A stretch of DNA of 5,874 nucleotides from an uncultured archaeon (GTDB taxonomy: Archaea > Iainarchaeota > Iainarchaeia > Iainarchaeales > CSSED10-239): contig CAZQEL010000031.1 in the NCBI GenBank assembly GCA_964591795.1, positions 1-5,874 of the forward strand. The letters are read 5' to 3'. Both the position numbers and the translations under genes were made by a program. Below are positions 1 through 5,874 of the stretch, piece by piece. Position 1 is the stretch's first letter. Each line of letters opens with the position of its first letter. A model generated the notes under the pieces. The model worked only from the letters and a program-made list of their open reading frames with translations, searched no databases and was not told the origin of the DNA.

Positions 1-419
1 TCGCCACTATCATCTTCATCAGACCATCTTTCAAAATACTCTCCACTTAATGCAATACCTCCATAAAACCCCGCAGTTAAAAAAAGTTTTCCATCACCTA
101 AATCAAATTTATAACCTAAATTTGCAGGTAGTTCAATATATGTAAATTTCAATATTCTTGTACTTTTATAATCTTCATCTTTGTATATTTCTTTATCTCC
201 TTTACCACTCAATAATAAACCTGATTGAAAAAATAACTTATCTGAAAATGAATAATCTAAGATGCCCCCTAAAGAAAGCGATAATCTTGAATCAGATAGT
301 TCGTAAGAGTCCTTTTCTAAATTTGCAATGTTGATACCTAATTTTGGACCAATTCTAACCTGTGAAAATGAAATAGAAACTAATAATAAAGCAACTGGTA
401 ATAAAATAATTTTTTTCAT
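1..419 (-). CDS. Outer-membrane beta-barrel protein (porin-family / OMP_b-brl_2-like). N-terminal ~139 aa only; the 3' end runs off the window.
   Basis: ATG at 417-419 (minus), with an uninterrupted frame to the window edge (hand-translated; absent from the ORF track because no stop is in the window). The translation begins MKKIILLPVALLLVSISFSQVRIGPKLGINIANLEKDSYELSDSRLSLSLGGILDYSFSDKLFFQSGLLLSGKG...KFTYIELPANLGYKFDLGDGKLFLTAGFYGGIALSG. It has a signal peptide ending SFSQ, then alternating amphipathic strands, including the YIELPANLGYKF and LTAGFYGG segments typical of Bacteroidota porin-family proteins. Confidence 0.75.
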   Translation of the reverse strand, partial: MKKIILLPVALLLVSISFSQVRIGPKLGINIANLEKDSYELSDSRLSLSLGGILDYSFSDKLFFQSGLLLSGKGDKEIYKDEDYKSTRILKFTYIELPANLGYKFDLGDGKLFLTAGFYGGIALSGEYFERWSDEDDSG

Positions 420-520
420 AATTTTTAAATTTATCCACCCCAGCCACAAGGATGGGTAAGTTAATTAAAGGGAACGTGAGGCTTTAACTTCAATCTATTT
501 TTTCAAAACTGAAGCTAACG
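420..520 (-). promoter_or_regulatory. Upstream/leader region of the OMP gene, with four blocks shared with the PKD-gene upstream region.
   Basis: The blocks, in plus-strand coordinates and sequence, are: AATTTTTAAATTT abutting the ATG (420-432), AGTTAATTAAA (459-469), AACGTGAG (473-480) and AAGCTAACG (512-520). The same four blocks occur in the same order at 1587-1599, 1623-1633, 1714-1721 and 1778-1786. Confidence 0.45.
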
Positions 521-629
521 TTTCTTTTTTATTTTATTCTTTTTCTATTTTTTAGGTTGATAACCCCTAAATTGTTTTTGATTATTATTTAACTTAATTC
601 AATTAATGTTTTTAATAGGTCATTCATAT

Positions 630-1586
630 TTATTGGGTACTGTATTTAACTTTAATATTATCAAAAAGACATCTTGTATCGCCACTGGTTAATCTTACAT
701 ATTTTAGCTGTAATTCTTCGTTAATAGCATTATCATTTTCTTGGTGTACAAGTTGCCCATTAATGTAATATTTTAATTCAACTATACTTTCTGATATTTT
801 ATAATCAATTTTTCCTTTAATCCATTCGTTTGCATTAAAACCACCAATTACTGTTTTAGACGGATAACAAGTAATGTCATTATTAGTTTCAAATCTAATA
901 AAATTTCTACCATAACCTGATGTCCAGCTTGTATTTGATTTAATTCCGAAAGAACCAAAACAATTATGATTTCCCACTTGACCCTCTCCTGTAAACAAAT
1001 ATTCAAATTCAAACTGGTAATGTTGATAACTATTATCATATTCTCTATAATTAATACCTTCCCAATTACCCCCGCTAATTCCTTGTATTGAAAAAGAATA
1101 GGGATAAGAAGAATAATCATCATTAGTTACATAACTATCATCACCATTGCCTGATGCTTCCCAATTACTTGGTAAAATATTTAACTGATAACTATTAAAA
1201 TTATCAAACCATAAAGTTGAGTAGCTAATATTTTCGGGATTAACATTAATATAATTTATTTTAGTTTCTGTATCTGAACCATAATCATTTGTAGTATTTA
1301 ATGAAATAGTATATGTGCCTGTTGAATTATAGGTATGTGCGGGATTTTGTTGGGTACTTATACCCCCATCTCCAAAATTCCATGACCAAATTGTAGGTGA
1401 ATTAGTTGATTGGTCAGTGAAACTAATTGTCTCCCCTTCTGTTATTATTGTTTTGTTAGATGTAAATGCAGTAACTGGTTCATATCCTTTATTTTCTTCA
1501 TCTTTTTTGCAACTATTTTGAAATACAATTATGCTACTAAAAAAGCAATAAAATATTAATGCTAAAAATTTTTGTTTTGTTTTCAT
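630..1586 (-). CDS. Lipoprotein with an N-terminal PKD domain and a C-terminal beta-rich (LamG/concanavalin-like?) domain.
   Basis: 318-aa ORF with a TAA stop at 630-632. The N-terminus MKTKQKFLALIFYCFFSSIIVFQNSC is a signal peptide plus lipobox Cys26 (codon 1509-1511), followed by KKDEE. The PKD hallmark is present: ISFTDQSTNSPTIWSWNFGDGGISTQQNPAHTYNSTGTYTISL. The C-terminal ~200 aa are Y/N/G/F-rich and end CLFDNIKVKY, which is jelly-roll-like; this is the weaker call. Confidence 0.85.
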   Translation of the reverse strand: MKTKQKFLALIFYCFFSSIIVFQNSCKKDEENKGYEPVTAFTSNKTIITEGETISFTDQSTNSPTIWSWNFGDGGISTQQNPAHTYNSTGTYTISLNTTNDYGSDTETKINYINVNPENISYSTLWFDNFNSYQLNILPSNWEASGNGDDSYVTNDDYSSYPYSFSIQGISGGNWEGINYREYDNSYQHYQFEFEYLFTGEGQVGNHNCFGSFGIKSNTSWTSGYGRNFIRFETNNDITCYPSKTVIGGFNANEWIKGKIDYKISESIVELKYYINGQLVHQENDNAINEELQLKYVRLTSGDTRCLFDNIKVKYSTQ

Positions 1587-1786
1587 AATTTTAAATTTTT
1601 GTTTTGCTCCAATCCCAAAAGCAGTTAATTAAAATAAAAAAGCGTGGAACTGTAGCTTATCCATTTCAAAGGTACTGTCATACCCAATGCCTAAACAAGT
1701 CAGCCCACGCTGTAACGTGAGCGTCATACTTATTATTCTAGGCATTTAAAAATTGACAGTTTTTGAAATGAAAATAAAAGCTAACG
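1587..1786 (-). promoter_or_regulatory. Upstream/leader region of the PKD lipoprotein gene (same four blocks as 420-520, plus the inserted segment).
   Basis: See the previous feature for the blocks. The order and orientation relative to the downstream (minus-strand) ATG are conserved. Confidence 0.45.
1641..1711. other. 71-nt GC-enriched segment bounded by a 7-bp inverted repeat. It is present in the PKD-gene upstream region and absent from the homologous OMP-gene upstream region.
   Basis: AGCGTGG (1641-1647) and CCACGCT (1705-1711) are perfect inverted repeats. The segment sits exactly between two blocks (AGTTAATTAAA and AACGTGAG). Those blocks are only 3 nt apart at 459-480 but 80 nt apart here. 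Confidence 0.5.
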
Positions 1787-1914
1787 CTTTTTATATTGTT
1801 TAAAAATTAATTGTTAATTTGGATAATTCCTCCTTTCTATTTTTAAGGTTTATAATTTGCAAATATAATAATTTTTGTAATATACAAATTTTTTTAAGAA
1901 TTTTTTTTGTTTTT

Positions 1915-1998
1915 GTGTGGGTAAGAAATAGCTCTTTTGGTTTTTCAAGGGTTGGGTTTTGCGTGTTAGCAAAAATCAAATGTGCTATTTGTGGGTTG
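1915..1998 (+). repeat. Intergenic G/T-rich repeat, copy C1 (most divergent).
   Basis: The sequence gtgtgggtaagaaatagctcttttggtttttcaagggttgggttttgcgtgttagcaaaaatcaaatgtgctatttgtgggttg aligns box-for-box with C2-C4: GTGGG-TAAG box, T-rich arm, G/T-rich loop, GTTAGCAAAAA-TCAAATGTG, then a GT-rich tail. The hairpin arms are 1936-1945 / 1971-1980 (10 bp including one G-T, i.e. G-U, pair). Confidence 0.65.
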
Positions 1999-2159
1999 TT
2001 TTTTGTATGAAATTTAATATTGAGATAAAAAATGGTTGCGGTTTTAATGGTATTTATTTTCTATAAAAAATAAAGATAATAAATTGCTTTAATTTTTTAA
2101 ATTATTACTTCTGTAGCAATTATTTTTTGTTTTTTATTTAAAATTAATCGTTTTTTATT

Positions 2160-2187
2160 TTGATTTTAAAAATATTGTGTATTTTTG
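2160..2187 (+). promoter_or_regulatory. Candidate Bacteroidota-type promoter for the OmpA-like gene.
   Basis: TATTTTTG (2180-2187) fits TAnnTTTG, and a TTG sits at 2160-2162. It lies ~25 nt upstream of ATG 2211. The surrounding DNA is so AT-rich that a chance match is plausible. Confidence 0.3.
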
Positions 2188-2210
2188 CTGTCTAATAAAT
2201 AAACAAAAAA

Positions 2211-3353
2211 ATGAAATCAATTATAGTGTCTTATACTCTGTCCTTTTTATTGGTGTGCAATTATTCTTTTGCACAAAACAATAAATGTGAATTTAAAGAA
2301 GGAGAATACAAACTTAAAGAATTGAGAAATTATATACATTCATATTATAAGAAAATAGATAATGAAATTAATTGTAAAAAGATAATTAATTATTACAATT
2401 GTTATAGTAAGTTTTTAACTGAATATGAAAAGAAGAAACCTATTATAAGTTTTAGAAATGAAGAAAATAGGAAAGAAATTAATTTCAATAAACTCAAAAA
2501 GAAAAAAGATATTTCAAGCAAAAACATAGAAAATATTAAAGAGAAATATTATAAAGCTGTTGAAGATTGTAAACCCCCTCATATAGACACTCTACATATA
2601 CCTGTAGATACATCAAAAACTCTCACAGACGTCAGAAAATCAAGCGCATTTAAACTTAAAAAAGCAAGACAAATAATTAAATCAATTAAAGAAGGACAAT
2701 ATGTCAAAACTGAGGAGATTCGTCAAATAGGAACAGACTTATATGTAGATTTAGCTTATTTTTTAAAAGACGAGTTTCCACCAGGTTATCATATTTTCCC
2801 TGATTATTCTCAAAAGGGTTTAAGAGAATTATTGTTGGTGTTTAAAGATTTTTTAAAAGAGAATGAAAGTAAAGGGATTTATGAATCAGCGATTGTTGTT
2901 AACATAACAGGATATGCAGATAGTATTCCTGTAGGAAATGATTTGAAATACAAGGGATTTACAGAAGATGTTAAAGATTGTAAACCTATAAAAGAAAATT
3001 ATTATTTGCTTGATGATTTTAATGATACACTTCCCGAATATAAAGATAAGTCCAATATTGAATGTGGTAAAAATATAAAAAATAATGAGGAACTATCATT
3101 AACTCGAACAATACATCCAAGAAATATTATTAAAGAAGTTTTAACCTTGTCTGAAATTAATTTATATACTTTACCCTCTCCGCATGGAGGAGGTCTTTAT
3201 AGAAGGGTTGAAATACAATATCTCGTGCCTGATTATTTTTTACCTGAAATGGAGGGCGTTTCAGACAAAGATAAGAAAAGATTTAATGAAGCATCTAAAA
3301 GTGAAATTGAACAAAATTTTAAAATATTTAGATTAGCAAAAAATAAAAAGTAA
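2211..3353 (+). CDS. Secreted Lys/Glu/Asn-rich protein with a divergent OmpA/MotB-like C-terminal domain.
   Basis: 380-aa ORF with a TAA stop. The signal peptide MKSIIVSYTLSFLLVCNYSFAQ is followed by a charged, low-complexity N-terminal half. The C-terminal region (approx. nt 2890-3230) carries ITGYADSIPVG ... NNEELSLTRT ... LYRRVEIQYLV. These follow the order of the OmpA_C motifs (GxTDxxG / NxxLSxxRA / NRRVEI), but with a ~50-aa insertion and substitutions. The A-rich, SD-less leader (aaacaaaaaaATG) is typical of Bacteroidota. Confidence 0.7.
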   Translation: MKSIIVSYTLSFLLVCNYSFAQNNKCEFKEGEYKLKELRNYIHSYYKKIDNEINCKKIINYYNCYSKFLTEYEKKKPIISFRNEENRKEINFNKLKKKKDISSKNIENIKEKYYKAVEDCKPPHIDTLHIPVDTSKTLTDVRKSSAFKLKKARQIIKSIKEGQYVKTEEIRQIGTDLYVDLAYFLKDEFPPGYHIFPDYSQKGLRELLLVFKDFLKENESKGIYESAIVVNITGYADSIPVGNDLKYKGFTEDVKDCKPIKENYYLLDDFNDTLPEYKDKSNIECGKNIKNNEELSLTRTIHPRNIIKEVLTLSEINLYTLPSPHGGGLYRRVEIQYLVPDYFLPEMEGVSDKDKKRFNEASKSEIEQNFKIFRLAKNKK

Positions 3354-3397
3354 TATAAATTTTTTCAATTGCTATTAATATTTTTTACTAAAAGTTT

Positions 3398-4336
3398 TTA
3401 ATTATTCTCATCTTTATAAAAAAAATCATTTTTGAATTCTTTAGCCTTTTTAAAATCAGCATTAGCTTTTTCAAAATTCCCTATTCTTTCATATGTGACC
3501 CCTCTACAATAATAAGCTTCGGAGAAGTTTGATTCTAATTCTATTGCCTTACTAAAGTTCTCAATAGCAGCAGCATAATCTTTTTTGTAAAAAAAAGGGT
3601 GTCCCCTATTACGATAAGTTTCAGAAGAGTTTGGATTTAATTCTATTGATTTATTATAATCTTTAATAGCCAAATCATAATTTTTATTTTTTTCTTCCCA
3701 CTTCCCTCTATCTGCATATGCAATAGCAATTAATTCTTGTTTTGTTAAATTTTTCATATAAAGGTTCTTTTCGATAGACTCTCTTTGGATAGTTAGCAAC
3801 CCAATATAATCTTTGTCAGAATATAATTCATTTTCAGTTGTCTCCCAATTAAAATCTCCCTTATTCACAATATCTGTACTTTCTAAACTACCATATCTTA
3901 TAAACATGTGACCTGGTGCTCTAACACCAAAAAGATTTAAATTAAATTTTTCTCCAACTGCCAAATAAATAAATGACATATCACTACAATCAAATTTATG
4001 TATTTCGTACTCAAGTCCTAAATTATTAATTTCTCTATGGGTTGTTTTTAATATTTCAATGACTTCCTCTTTAGAATATTTCTCTTTTTTATTGTATTGT
4101 TTTTCAACATTTTCAATTATTTTTTCTAATTTATTTACATCATGAAAGTTATTTTCAGAATCTTTCATAATTTCATACATAAAATGTGTTGTAGTAGGAT
4201 ATTTTTCTGTTTCATTCATAACTGAATCTACAAACGCAGATTTGTTTTGTCCTTTTTCTTGTGTTTGAGAATATCCTAATAAAGAACTAACTAGAAAAGT
4301 TCCTGCAATTACTGGTAACTTCCAGTTAAATCTCAT
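3398..4336 (-). CDS. Secreted transglutaminase-like (Transglut_core2 / SirB1-type) protein with C-terminal TPR repeats.
   Basis: 312-aa ORF with a TAA stop. The N-terminus MRFNWKLPVIAGTFLVSSLLGYSQ is signal-like. FDCSDMSFIYLAVGEKFNLNLFGVRAPGHMFIRY (approx. nt 3890-4000) matches the Cys...PGH core of transglutaminase-like proteins that are fused to TPRs. The C-terminal ~110 aa (approx. nt 3410-3730) show three TPR-like units: YDLAIKDYNKSIELNPN, YAAAIENFSKAIELESN and FEKANADFKKAKEF. Confidence 0.8.
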   Translation of the reverse strand: MRFNWKLPVIAGTFLVSSLLGYSQTQEKGQNKSAFVDSVMNETEKYPTTTHFMYEIMKDSENNFHDVNKLEKIIENVEKQYNKKEKYSKEEVIEILKTTHREINNLGLEYEIHKFDCSDMSFIYLAVGEKFNLNLFGVRAPGHMFIRYGSLESTDIVNKGDFNWETTENELYSDKDYIGLLTIQRESIEKNLYMKNLTKQELIAIAYADRGKWEEKNKNYDLAIKDYNKSIELNPNSSETYRNRGHPFFYKKDYAAAIENFSKAIELESNFSEAYYCRGVTYERIGNFEKANADFKKAKEFKNDFFYKDENN

Positions 4337-4338
4337 CC

Positions 4339-4376
4339 AAGTAGGATGATTTTTTTATTTAAAAAACTTCCTACTT
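4339..4376 (-). promoter_or_regulatory. 5'-leader hairpin abutting the start codon of the transglutaminase/TPR gene.
   Basis: AAGTAGGA (4339-4346) is the exact reverse complement of TCCTACTT (4369-4376). The interior can extend the stem through T-run/A-run pairing (4350-4354 with 4361-4365). On the minus-strand mRNA the stem ends 2 nt before the AUG (4336-4334). Confidence 0.5.
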
Positions 4377-4400
4377 ATAAACTACTATAAAATGGTATAT

Positions 4401-4417
4401 GTCTTGTGTGGCAAATC
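4401..4417 (+). repeat. Partial copy (tail box only) of the same repeat family.
   Basis: gtcttgtgtggcaaatc resembles the 3' tail box of C3 (tttgtgtgtgttagcaaaag) and C4 (tttgtgtgttggcaagc). It lies ~60 nt upstream of C2 in the same orientation. Confidence 0.4.
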
Positions 4418-4475
4418 GTAAATCAAAAATCGTTAATCCTTGTTCTTAAACCAATCTCTTGAAAAGTCAGTTTGA

Positions 4476-4557
4476 GCGTGGGATAAGTTCTTTTCAATTT
4501 TTTAGTGTTGTAAGTGAGTTGGCAAAAATTGAAATGGGCTTGATAGGGTGGGCAAAT
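4476..4557 (+). repeat. Intergenic G/T-rich repeat, copy C2 (first of a tandem pair).
   Basis: The sequence is gcgtgggataagttcttttcaattttttagtgttgtaagtgagttggcaaaaattgaaatgggcttgatagggtgggcaaat. Nt 4484-4505 are identical to 5562-5583 (22 nt). The hairpin arms are 4492-4502 / 4524-4534 (11 perfect bp). Confidence 0.8.
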
Positions 4558-4596
4558 AATAAGTATTAATTATCATTTTTAACTAAAATAGTTTAA

Positions 4597-4687
4597 GCGT
4601 AGGCAAAAACAAACTCTTTCAAATTTTTTAGCGAGGTGGGGCTGAGTTAAGCAAAAATTTGAATGTGTTTGTGTGTGTTAGCAAAAG
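4597..4687 (+). repeat. Intergenic G/T-rich repeat, copy C3 (second of the tandem pair, 121 nt after C2).
   Basis: The sequence is gcgtaggcaaaaacaaactctttcaaattttttagcgaggtggggctgagttaagcaaaaatttgaatgtgtttgtgtgtgttagcaaaag. Nt 4654-4676 are identical to 5604-5626 (23 nt). The hairpin arms are 4618-4628 / 4653-4663 (11 perfect bp). Confidence 0.8.
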
Positions 4688-4714
4688 TCCGCAGAAAGAT
4701 TTTTTACTTTTTTC

Positions 4715-4745
4715 TTGACTTTACATTTTTTATTTTGTATATTTG
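4715..4745 (+). promoter_or_regulatory. Promoter for the 69-aa ORF.
   Basis: TTGACT (4715-4720), an exactly 17-nt spacer, then TATATT (4738-4743) is near the sigma70 consensus. The same TATATTTG (4738-4745) also fits the Bacteroidota -7 motif TAnnTTTG, with a TTG ~20 nt upstream. It lies ~45 nt upstream of the ATG. Confidence 0.6.
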
Positions 4746-4780
4746 TCGCTTAATTCAATTAGTGTTTAACTTTTAAAATA

Positions 4781-4786
4781 GGAGGT
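4781..4786 (+). promoter_or_regulatory. Shine-Dalgarno sequence (GGAGGT).
   Basis: GGAGG ends 5 nt before ATG 4791. It is the only strong SD in the window; every other gene here has an A/T-rich leader without an SD. Confidence 0.65.
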
Positions 4787-4790
4787 AGCT

Positions 4791-5000
4791 ATGTCTGAAA
4801 ATATTAAATTTGGAAAAATTTTTTCTAGTAAAACAGGTATTGGAGCAACTTCGCAAGGGGTGGGAAATAAAGAAGTAGAATCACACTTCACCTTTGATAA
4901 AAACAAAGGTTTTCATGTATCAACTTATTTGAATGATTATTTGATGTCTAATTTAGAGAAAACTAATCAAAAAATAAAAGTGAATCAAACTAATTTTTAA
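4791..5000 (+). CDS. Hypothetical small protein (69 aa), apparently a monocistronic unit.
   Basis: The ORF is MSENIKFGKIFSSKTGIGATSQGVGNKEVESHFTFDKNKGFHVSTYLNDYLMSNLEKTNQKIKVNQTNF. It is preceded by GGAGG (4781-4785) 5 nt before the ATG and by a TTGACT-N17-TATATT promoter. A hairpin plus T-run terminator follows ~15 nt after the TAA stop. It has no signal peptide and I recognise no family. Confidence 0.6.
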   Translation: MSENIKFGKIFSSKTGIGATSQGVGNKEVESHFTFDKNKGFHVSTYLNDYLMSNLEKTNQKIKVNQTNF

Positions 5001-5015
5001 AAAATAATTTTAAAG

Positions 5016-5042
5016 GCAGGAATAAAAATTTTCTGCTTTTTT
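5016..5042 (+). terminator. Intrinsic (Rho-independent) terminator after the 69-aa ORF.
   Basis: GCAGGAA (5016-5022) pairs with TTTCTGC (5030-5036): 7 bp including one G-U, with a 7-nt loop. A T6 run follows immediately (5037-5042). Confidence 0.7.
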
Positions 5043-5083
5043 ATTGGCTTAAATATATAAGCTTAAATTGGTTTGTTTTATTA

Positions 5084-5497
5084 ATGGGTAATATAAAAGT
5101 AGCATCAATCATTTCAGATTTTTCTAAAAATATAAATTGGAAAAATCTTCCACAAGTAAATATTTTGGAGAAAAGGAATAAAAAAATTATTAAATTGAAA
5201 AGAGAAATAGAAAGATTTAATGAAAAAGAAGAATATGAGAAACTTTCGCTAAAACTCATAAATTTTTTAAAAGAAGTTCTAGTTACTGCTAATAAAAATT
5301 ATTCAAAACAAAAAGAATTATTTGATGAATTGTATTGGTTTCGTTATTCATTTGTAGATAAAGAAGAAGATTCACTTCTTTTGGATGAAATTTCAAATAT
5401 ATTTTTTGAATTTCAATCAGATCCAAATTACGATGAATTAATTAAAAAAATTGATTTTGCTAGGAAAAAAATTAGTTTAATTATTTCTAAAACATAA
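5084..5497 (+). CDS. Hypothetical protein (137 aa), predicted mostly helical and highly charged.
   Basis: ORF with a TAA stop and K/E/I/L-rich heptad-like stretches (KIIKLKREIERFNEKEEYEKLSLKLINFLKEVL). It has no signal peptide and no recognisable motif. It starts 42 nt after the upstream terminator. There is no clear RBS, so the start codon is uncertain. Confidence 0.5.
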   Translation: MGNIKVASIISDFSKNINWKNLPQVNILEKRNKKIIKLKREIERFNEKEEYEKLSLKLINFLKEVLVTANKNYSKQKELFDELYWFRYSFVDKEEDSLLLDEISNIFFEFQSDPNYDELIKKIDFARKKISLIISKT

Positions 5498-5557
5498 ATC
5501 TTTTTTTTTAATTTTTAATTTCTCAAATTATTTTTAAAAAAATAGGTTCAAACAAAA

Positions 5558-5634
5558 GGGTTAAGTTCTTTTCAATTTTTTAGCTTGTGAGAGGGATTGT
5601 GCGAAAATTTGAATGTGTTTGTGTGTTGGCAAGC
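5558..5634 (+). repeat. Intergenic G/T-rich repeat, copy C4 (mosaic: C2-type 5' half, C3-type 3' half).
   Basis: The sequence is gggttaagttcttttcaattttttagcttgtgagagggattgtgcgaaaatttgaatgtgtttgtgtgttggcaagc. It shares an exact 22-mer with C2 and an exact 23-mer with C3. The hairpin arms are 5571-5580 / 5603-5613, with a 1-nt bulge and a terminal T-G pair. Confidence 0.8.
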
Positions 5635-5765
5635 TTGCATGAATGTTTCTTTTTTTAAAATAGGGCATAACTCTGCAAATAAAAAATCGTTTTAATGTTT
5701 TTTATTTGTTGTTAAAATTTTAGATTAATCCCTAATTTTATAAACCCCTTCCTATTTCTTTAAAT

Positions 5766-5874
5766 ATGATATTAACAAAAGACGAACTAGAAGAAATTCT
5801 TGAAGAACTTAAGAAACATAAAGGAAGAGCAACTGAATTAATTAGTGTTTATATTCCTGCGGGTTATGATGTGA
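5766..5874 (+). CDS. aRF1/eRF1-family (archaeo-eukaryotic release factor-like) protein. N-terminal 36 aa only; it continues beyond the window.
   Basis: Hand translation from ATG 5766 gives [36 protein letters not shown], open to the window edge. An amphipathic helix followed by [15 protein letters not shown] matches the conserved start of aRF1/eRF1 domain N (compare human eRF1 ...LEAARGNGTSMISLIIPP, and archaeal aRF1 ...GRGTELISLYIPP from memory). Only 36 residues are visible, so divergent bacterial eRF1-like (baeRF) families cannot be excluded. Confidence 0.6.

Follow-up and report, generated by a model that had tools for sequence, protein, structure and literature searches.

The question raised by this locus is what kind of element recurs, in one orientation, between the genes of an A/T-rich archaeal DNA. 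The window, that is, the whole stretch analysed, comprises 5,874 nt from an uncultured archaeon (positions 1-5,874, forward strand, of contig CAZQEL010000031.1, assembly GCA_964591795.1), has a GC content of 26% and contains four full copies of a repeat unit (C1-C4), all on the + strand, and one or two fragments besides. The repeat family, which had been proposed in an earlier reading of the window (the original prediction), is real, and that observation is here confirmed and more sharply defined, while the interpretation attached to it is partly supported. The copies have in common a hairpin of the + single strand which is under selection, and the family is tentatively read as a structured extragenic repeat of one lineage.

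Repeat units and their arrangement

Each unit is ~95-100 nt in size and consists, from 5' to 3', of a G-rich box, a 19-bp A/T-rich hairpin with a loop of 21-25 nt, and a GT-rich tail which ends in the same box as is found at the 5' side (GTNRGCAAA). The copies lie at or near the positions given in the original prediction, and all of them are intergenic according to open reading frame (ORF) and Pfam analysis, as had been claimed.

C1 (1908-2004, + strand; covariance model 77.8 bits) contains the 5' box GTGTGGGTAAG (1915-1925), followed by the outer helix AAATAGC / GCTATTT (1926-1932 / 1984-1990), an internal T.T, C-G, T.T motif (1933-1935 / 1981-1983), the inner helix TTTGGTTTTT / AAAAATCAAA (1936-1945 / 1971-1980), a loop at 1946-1970 and the tail GTGGGTTG, behind which stands a T6 run. 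C2 (4468-4560, + strand; covariance model 82.1 bits) has the 5' box AGTTTGAGCGTGGGA, an outer helix TAAGT / GCTTG which includes G.T pairs (4484-4488 / 4538-4542), the internal motif TCT / TGG, the inner helix TTTCAATTTTT / AAAAATTGAAA (4492-4502 / 4524-4534), a loop at 4503-4523 and the tail ATAGGGTGGGCAAATAA. The highest score belongs to C3 (4590-4687, + strand; covariance model 97.2 bits, thermodynamic z = -3.6), which has the 5' box AGTTTAAGCGTAGGCAAAAA, the outer helix CAAAC / GTTTG (4610-4614 / 4667-4671, extendable to 4602 / 4679), the internal motif TCT / TGT, an inner helix at 4618-4628 / 4653-4663, a loop at 4629-4652 and the tail GTGTGTGTTAGCAAAAG.

C4 (5546-5634, + strand; covariance model 63.1 bits) is a recombinant with a loop of its own, where the 5' arm equals that of C2 over 22 nt (5562-5583) and the 3' arm equals that of C3 over 23 nt (5604-5626). 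Both exact identities were already part of the original prediction (4484-4505 = 5562-5583 and 4654-4676 = 5604-5626) and hold, while a repeat search extends each of them to 26 nt at 96%, with one mismatch at the 5' end. As a C2-type 5' arm is joined to a C3-type 3' arm, the register of C4 is shifted and its stem is weaker, with 11 Watson-Crick pairs, 5 G.T pairs and 3 mismatches.

The partial copy reported earlier also exists, as a 3' tail alone (AATGGTATATGTCTTGTGTGGCAAATCG, 4391-4417, + strand) with the box TGGCAAAT at 4409-4416. This fragment, C2 and C3 form a direct array with a spacing of ~130-140 nt upstream of a 69-aa gene; the start-to-start distance of 121 nt between C2 and C3 had been given correctly, and because of indels the 3' halves of the two copies are 129 nt apart. 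The two arms are far more frequent in the window than expected: the arm motif GCAAAAATTTGAATGTG, with up to 3 mismatches, has 3 matches, all on the + strand (expected 0.15; 0/200 shuffles reach 3), and the arm motif TTCTTTTCAATTTTTTAG has 4 matches against 0.40 expected (0/200 shuffles reach 4). Similarity among the copies runs 15-25 nt past both arms, where the flanks are direct repeats of the box, and weak similarity continues downstream of C1 and C4.

A conserved hairpin of the + strand

The four units were aligned by hand, and the common fold was read from the alignment. From the outside in, this fold comprises an outer helix of 5-7 bp, the T.T / C-G / T.T internal motif, an inner helix of 10-11 bp and a loop of 21-25 nt. 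Standard pairs occupy 93.2% of the 74 pair cells (19 pairs), a percentage inflated by the use of the same four sequences to derive and to test the structure, compared with 33-62% if the 3' partners are displaced by 1-3 columns. In five of the 19 pairs both bases have changed. C1, C2 and C3 each have an outer helix of a different sequence which nevertheless pairs, and this is the strongest single argument for the hairpin. Relative to the inner helix of C2 and C3, TTTCAA(A)TTTTT/AAAAA(T)TTGAAA, that of C1 carries compensating changes.

Conservation along the unit is very uneven, as the mean pairwise identity is 100% at the 5' side and 83% at the 3' side of the internal motif, 81-82% in the inner helix, 50-60% in the outer helix, 45% in the loop and 26-55% in the flanks. 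The fold also has a preferred strand: all 8 wobbles are G.T pairs of the + strand that could not form on the - strand, while the folding energy is -15 to -25 kcal/mol on the + strand against -5 to -13 on the - strand, the + strand being better by 5-12. The thermodynamic z of the core is -2.3 to -3.6 for C1-C3 and ~0 for C4. Uneven conservation, a covarying helix and one-sided wobble pairs together show that a hairpin of the + single strand is under selection.

These patterns bear on one alternative, in which the copies are neutral leftovers of local intergenic duplications with no selected property. The confinement of every known copy to 3.7 kb of one contig would agree with such an origin, as would the truncated copy and the weak similarity downstream of C1 and C4. 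However, neutral duplicates would diverge more evenly than is seen here, where the 5' side of the internal motif is fully conserved and the loop is not, and they would neither acquire compensatory changes in a helix nor keep the composition of a loop whose sequence has diverged, so that this explanation is considered very improbable.

In the original prediction a MITE (a miniature kind of transposable element with inverted repeats) had been set aside because the ends of the unit are direct rather than inverted. The direct flanks are indeed present, but the argument is incomplete, as the element possesses a long internal inverted repeat, whose arms are part of the conserved 19-bp hairpin in all copies, C1 included, and carry the compensatory changes. 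This internal inverted repeat, of which little use had been made, is the most strongly selected part of the element.

The GTNRGCAAA box, base composition and two rival explanations

A common architecture with a G-rich box recurring three times per unit had been described, and the box bears this out: GTNRGCAAA has 5 exact matches in the window, all on the + strand and all within the elements, against 0.36 expected (0/200 shuffles reach 5). They stand at 1965-1973 (C1, at the junction of loop and 3' arm), 4518-4526, 4548-4556, 4599-4607 and 4677-4685. The claim that the loops are made almost entirely of G, T and A is likewise borne out (1-3 C in 21-25 nt). Whole elements contain 26-28% G and 7-12% C, compared with 15% G and 10% C in all intergenic DNA, and their GC content (0.35-0.37) exceeds that of the adjacent AT-rich spacers (0.14-0.25). 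The GC skew over the elements is +0.27 to +0.59; an excess of G over C marks the sense strand in the flanking genes and is stronger still in the elements.

An enriched and strictly oriented box could belong to a module of double-stranded DNA situated between promoters, with three direct boxes for a regulator and two divergent promoter-like half-sites, where GC(A/T)AAAAATT(T)GAA resembles, on both strands, a B recognition element followed by a weak TATA box. The copies lie 50-180 nt upstream of where the flanking genes probably have their core promoters, both the sequence and the pairing of the inner arms are conserved, and the 5' arm, on the minus strand, resembles 537-559 and 1828-1855, both upstream of minus-strand leaders. 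The first of these, TTCTTTTTCTATTTTTTAGGTTG (537-559, + strand, z ~3-4), is a possible half-site like the 5' arm whose membership in the family is uncertain; it also resembles 1828-1855 and may belong instead to the region upstream of the minus-strand leaders. Such a module, however, explains neither an outer helix that stays complementary despite changes in sequence nor wobble pairs that favour one strand. The distance from arm to arm varies (21-25 nt), as does that to the downstream genes (105-235 nt); the TATA-like part has a central G, which is poor for the TATA-binding protein; and the island encodes no DNA-binding protein recognisable in domain searches. A module of this kind is thus rated as distinctly unlikely.

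The position upstream of a plus-strand start codon, to which attention had been drawn, is correct as far as the distances go (105-235 nt to the next + ATG), but it carries little information, since in two of the three intergenic regions the genes on either side diverge. Of the three roles suggested earlier, a REP-like (repetitive extragenic palindrome) repeat and an RNA are favoured, while a plain array of binding boxes in double-stranded DNA is disfavoured, because the outer helix varies yet pairs and the wobbles occur on the + strand only.

The strand-specific hairpin with its compensatory changes would also be expected if each unit were a stand-alone small RNA gene on the + strand and the copies were paralogues; tandem small RNA paralogues are common among prokaryotes. 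The product would be a G/U-rich RNA whose repeated single-stranded GUNRGCAAA boxes and G-rich loop capture either a protein or a target rich in C/U, as multi-motif sponge RNAs do. Loops which have diverged in sequence and are still G-rich and C-poor, three boxes per unit and the higher GC content of the elements relative to their spacers agree with this explanation, as does a run of at least 5 T within ~20 nt after every copy (1999-2004, 4576-4580, 4700-4705 and 5650-5656). Such runs, however, are too frequent to be informative, with 17 of at least 5 T within 3.7 kb of sense-strand coding sequence, and a T6 run even lies within the 5' arm of C2, C3 and C4 (T5 in C1); the terminator argument was therefore dropped. 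Half of the middle box lies inside the stem, the window contains no complementary target for the box, one copy is truncated and another is a recombinant with a weakened stem, Rfam gives no match, and the element is not kept upstream of the 69-aa gene in relatives (see below). Stand-alone small RNA genes are thus regarded as unlikely, though they deserve to be kept in mind.

Several other features of the copies were inspected. A sigma-70 scan gives 46 sites against 38 expected and is uninformative in DNA of 26% GC. A G-quadruplex was rejected by inspection, as four G-tracts are not consistently found in each copy. An ATG follows an A-rich run at the equivalent position of the 3' arm in every copy (1980, 4534, 4663 and 5613); these are probably not coding, and the idea was rejected, as the ORFs starting there comprise 28, 11, 37 and 9 codons and are unrelated beyond the nucleotides in common, their peptides having only MCLCV in common, between C3 and C4.

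Occurrence outside the window

The repeat is seen in one strain only, and the sole copies found are those of its 7.8-kb contig, which lends no support to the genome-wide role suggested in the original prediction. Protein look-ups returned the identical strain from ~10 assemblies (L001-L006 and L051-L055, ~100% identity), L150 as a single population variant, and distant relatives. In 185,579 GTDB species genomes, in JGI metagenome contigs and in IMG/VR, pattern scans revealed no copy but chance-like matches, with a pattern, TTTTTTAGN{12,26}GCRAAAATTKRAATG, that fits three of the four copies (C2-C4); these scans did not recover the source organism either, and the JGI scan missed even a short JGI contig known to bear C2 and C3. 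The pattern matched 19 loci in species genomes, 17 in metagenome contigs and 0 in viral contigs, and none of the matched loci extends past the pattern under a hidden Markov model of the four copies, their flanks being unrelated. Two single-arm patterns gave, on viral contigs, 90 loci, of which 80 were listed, and 2 loci, all chance-like among those listed, while blastn against phages and plasmids gave no match.

Among relatives, no copy stands upstream of the 69-aa gene where its protein is 81% and 74% identical (L043 and L045-L050), and other related loci are also without a match (nhmmer and covariance model, E<=10). The covariance model built from the four copies finds just those four in 52 kb of related sequence. 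Because no copies were found elsewhere, relatives included, the family is, as far as the sequences compared can tell, young or fast-evolving, and its absence beside the 69-aa gene of relatives argues against a conserved regulatory RNA or operator.

Genomic context and gene-block boundaries

The source contig L001 (7,849 nt) opens within a class-I aminoacyl-tRNA synthetase gene, of which it has the C-terminal end (1-174), and closes within the gene for an archaeal-type release factor, aRF1, of which it has the N-terminus and which contains the NIKS motif (7655-7849; window 5766-5874). A homologous synthetase is found close upstream of aRF1 in other low-GC contigs, one of which is labelled Candidatus Nanoarchaeia; the two genes are adjacent in L154 and ~1.4 kb apart in L149, and, judging from the common C-terminal motif, the synthetase of L153 is apparently directly adjacent to aRF1 as well. 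As this neighbourhood is typical of DPANN-type contigs, the window represents a variable insertion of ~7.5 kb between two conserved neighbours in what is probably a DPANN-type archaeon.

This island encodes an OMP_b-brl_2 porin-like protein, whose named relatives are from Flavobacterium (~30% identity), and PKD and TPR proteins of bacterial look. The predicted models of the 137-aa and 69-aa neighbours (mean pLDDT, a per-residue model confidence, of 56 and 51, respectively) are too poor for a fold search. The repeat copies stand at the borders of gene blocks, between the likely promoters of the flanking genes, in the order PKD side, C1, 380-aa and TPR genes, C2-C3, 69-aa and 137-aa genes, C4, aRF1.

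The 69/137-aa gene pair is seen in three different genomic contexts. In L043, this pair is bracketed by a different, GC-richer direct repeat, AACGGCGGTCGCTCTTGAGCCAATGGTTATA (20-60, 1005-1045 and 1801-1850; also 841-887 and 1660-1691), which forms no hairpins around the pair. The same contig contains a 1-kb non-coding stretch (832-1892), A/C-rich on one strand and with box-like words (GTTAGCAAAAT) on the other. In the population variant, which comes from another sample, L150 1-1703 equals L001 433-2135 at 100% and diverges sharply just after a 74-aa gene; beyond the break stand a leader and a paralogous OMP gene (79% protein identity), so that L150 represents either a strain variant with a rearrangement or the same segment in a second copy.

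Co-oriented copies at gene-block borders suggest one more explanation, a non-canonical, structure-specific recombination site, loosely attC-like, which marks the boundaries of gene blocks in the archaeal island. The three different contexts of the 69/137-aa pair, the variable spot between conserved neighbours, the break of the population variant at L001 ~433 and a strand-specific fold with two helices split by a small internal loop are all consistent with such a site. Neither strand of the window, however, has an RYYYAAC ... GTTRRRY pair, the conserved helix is the inner one, whereas in attC it is the outer R boxes, and no integrase is encoded in the 7.8 kb. The blocks hold oppositely oriented genes, C2 and C3 would enclose an empty cassette, and the L043 repeats around the same gene pair form no hairpins. 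A new site of this kind, with an attC-like fold and no attC core, delimiting exchangeable blocks in a hot spot between the aminoacyl-tRNA synthetase and aRF1, is therefore given little probability; if true, genes would be moving between domains by means of a cassette system other than integrons, and some of the candidate exchangeable blocks encode bacterial-looking surface proteins.

Proposed nature of the repeat and its significance

The reading that is preferred, at somewhat less than an even chance, is a lineage-restricted structured extragenic repeat with REP/MITE-like dynamics, which acts as a single strand, probably as a + strand RNA. The repeat would multiply locally, as suggested by a direct array with a truncated member; its copies would recombine with each other, as in C4; and it would occupy the free space between the promoters of a variable island. 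Taken together with the absence from relatives, these features speak for multiplying and decaying DNA rather than for a conserved regulator. Selection on a strand-specific hairpin implies that the element may work as a single strand, most likely an RNA made in the + direction. Placed between genes, a long stem-loop of A-U and G-U pairs could act in processing, in stability or as an insulator, and its exposed G-rich boxes would be open to a putative binding protein. Transcription and its direction, like the mode of spread and any influence on adjacent genes, are inferred.

Several points weigh against this reading. Four copies are known, from one 7.8-kb contig, so that 'family', 'spread' and 'selfish' are extrapolations, and one set of four sequences served both to derive the structure, by eye, and to test it. 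The copies have a single orientation, which has a chance probability of ~1/4 with three independent sites. Domain searches revealed no transposase or recombinase gene on the 7.8-kb contig, the outer ends of the units bear no terminal inverted repeats, and inspection of the flanks of the four copies, whose ends are not sharp, showed no consistent target-site duplication. Three direct boxes and a strongly C-depleted strand are not usual in REP/MITE families and better suit an RNA or a protein-binding platform.

The significance of the repeat depends on its number. DPANN-type genomes are small, compact and not known for structured interspersed repeats. If abundant in the full genome, it would be, to our knowledge, the first such repeat described from a DPANN-type archaeon, and it could become a marker for strain typing and for tracing island rearrangements; if confined to this locus, it would be a minor local curiosity. 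Many copies, or a link to the exchange of gene blocks, would raise the significance of the family. The strand-specific hairpin with three exposed G-rich boxes is a candidate RNA or single-strand DNA ligand of some protein.

Minus-strand leaders and related contigs

Upstream of its PKD gene (630-1586), the window also contains a structured minus-strand leader of ~210 nt (1587-1800). Its homologue at L150 1855-2066 indicates conservation between two paralogous loci; the predicted fold comprises 49 pairs, 9 of which still pair after changes on both sides, and at its end the leader has CCACGC, a T6 run and, immediately ahead of the start codon, a second hairpin. Shorter relatives are located upstream of the OMP gene (window 421-600) and of a 166-aa gene (L001 1548-1654). 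The leader has no match in Rfam and may represent a cis-regulatory RNA, so far undescribed, of genes for secreted proteins. The regions upstream of the minus-strand genes (window 505-563 and 1771-1855) have two boxes in common, AGCTAACG within 505-536 and 1771-1802, and TTTCTATTTTT(T/A)AGGTT(G/T)ATAA at 542-563 and 1834-1855 (91% over 22 nt), the latter resembling the 5' arm of the repeat. Homology of the repeat to the structured minus-strand leaders was considered and dropped, as the matches are weak (z ~3-4).

Some of the related contigs have peculiarities around aRF1. In L154, aRF1 (1727-2812) contains an in-frame TAA where relatives have Glu (WDI*PPMP vs WEIEPPMP), and the adjacent aminoacyl-tRNA synthetase gene (2-1687) contains an in-frame TAG, which could be due to sequencing error, pseudogenes or recoding; the genes in the window mostly end in TAA. 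In L148 (8538-8812; GCA_000992845.1, labelled Microgenomates), an aRF1-type N-terminus, 86% identical to that of the window, overlaps by 4 nt with the gene that closes a bacterial type-IV-pilus-like operon, the contig being assigned to a bacterium of the Candidate Phyla Radiation, an arrangement which points to mis-binning, a chimeric contig or gene transfer. In L153 (1124-1256), the sequence past aRF1 residue ~66 changes to a translated '...ECRSRWSPYH...', which we take to be typical of a widespread repeat or artefact, and this contig looks chimeric.

Comparison with known systems

A covariance-model search of the whole window against Rfam 15 (E<=1) gives 0 matches, and the region 4380-4720, searched at E<=10, reaches only 11-17 bits against thresholds of 37-230 bits. 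The earlier statement that the element matches no known RNA family is thus upheld, and 'new' holds with respect to Rfam. C/D-box and H/ACA RNAs and the replication-origin ORB (origin recognition box) were rejected by inspection, as the motifs are absent or the context is wrong. For the boxes read on the minus strand, a promoter of the Bacteroidota type (TAnnTTTG) was rejected as well, as they lack the TA and probably belong to an archaeal host.

Multi-copy small RNA families with repeated binding motifs, such as sponges of the CsrB/RsmZ type, resemble the repeat in having short motifs repeated in loops or single strands, tandem paralogues and a strand-specific composition. The repeat differs from them in that it has no Rfam homology, is absent from relatives and has 3 boxes per unit, one of them partly paired.

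Integron attC sites, which have been reported in archaea too (PMC9668308), have in common with the repeat a single-strand hairpin with two helices and an internal unpaired region, a stem whose structure is partly more conserved than its sequence, and co-oriented copies which resemble one another and lie between gene blocks. In the repeat, however, the conserved helix is the inner and not the outer one, the blocks are not typical cassettes and no integrase gene is nearby. The attC core pair RYYYAAC-N35-130-GTTRRRY is absent from both strands of the window, where single GTTRRRY matches occur in C1, C3 and C4 at differing places with no partner. With regard to the fold, the hairpin core of 63-79 nt (attC 57-141 nt) has a variable loop and no conserved bulged bases.

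REP/BIME sequences are repetitive extragenic palindromes mobilised by RAYT transposases. RAYT-associated REPs number tens to hundreds per genome and go with a RAYT gene of the IS200/IS605 (Y1) type. Like them, the repeat consists of short intergenic hairpins, single or clustered, with complementary changes in the stem and strong variation between strains and species, and it has a GT(A/G)GG motif 5' of the hairpin. Unlike RAYT-associated REPs, the element is ~100 nt long, with an A/T-rich stem of 19 bp and a G-rich loop of 21-25 nt; its GTAGG / GTGGG box lies 5-17 nt upstream of the stem and not at the stem foot; it has three direct boxes; and its host is probably archaeal. REPs described in bacteria comprise 20-40 bp, are G-C-rich, and have stems of 5-13 bp, loops mostly of 2-5 nt (range 2-20) and a GTAG tag directly at one end (PMC3733652). 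A canonical REP was rejected by these criteria, as the unit is too long, the stem too A/T-rich, the loop too large and the tag misplaced (PMC3733652).

A classical MITE was rejected as well, as the outer flanks are direct repeats of one box and inspection of the not sharply defined ends shows no consistent target duplication. Some MITE-type repeats, namely ERIC, Correia/NEMIS and bcr1, are co-transcribed and fold as RNA (PMC3184786). The repeat differs from these in that its inverted arms are internal and its conserved outer flanks are direct, and resembles them in its intergenic position, a size on the order of their ~100-150 nt, a long imperfect inverted repeat and a patchy distribution. Overall, the element most resembles such REP/MITE-like hairpin repeats, which are known from bacteria.

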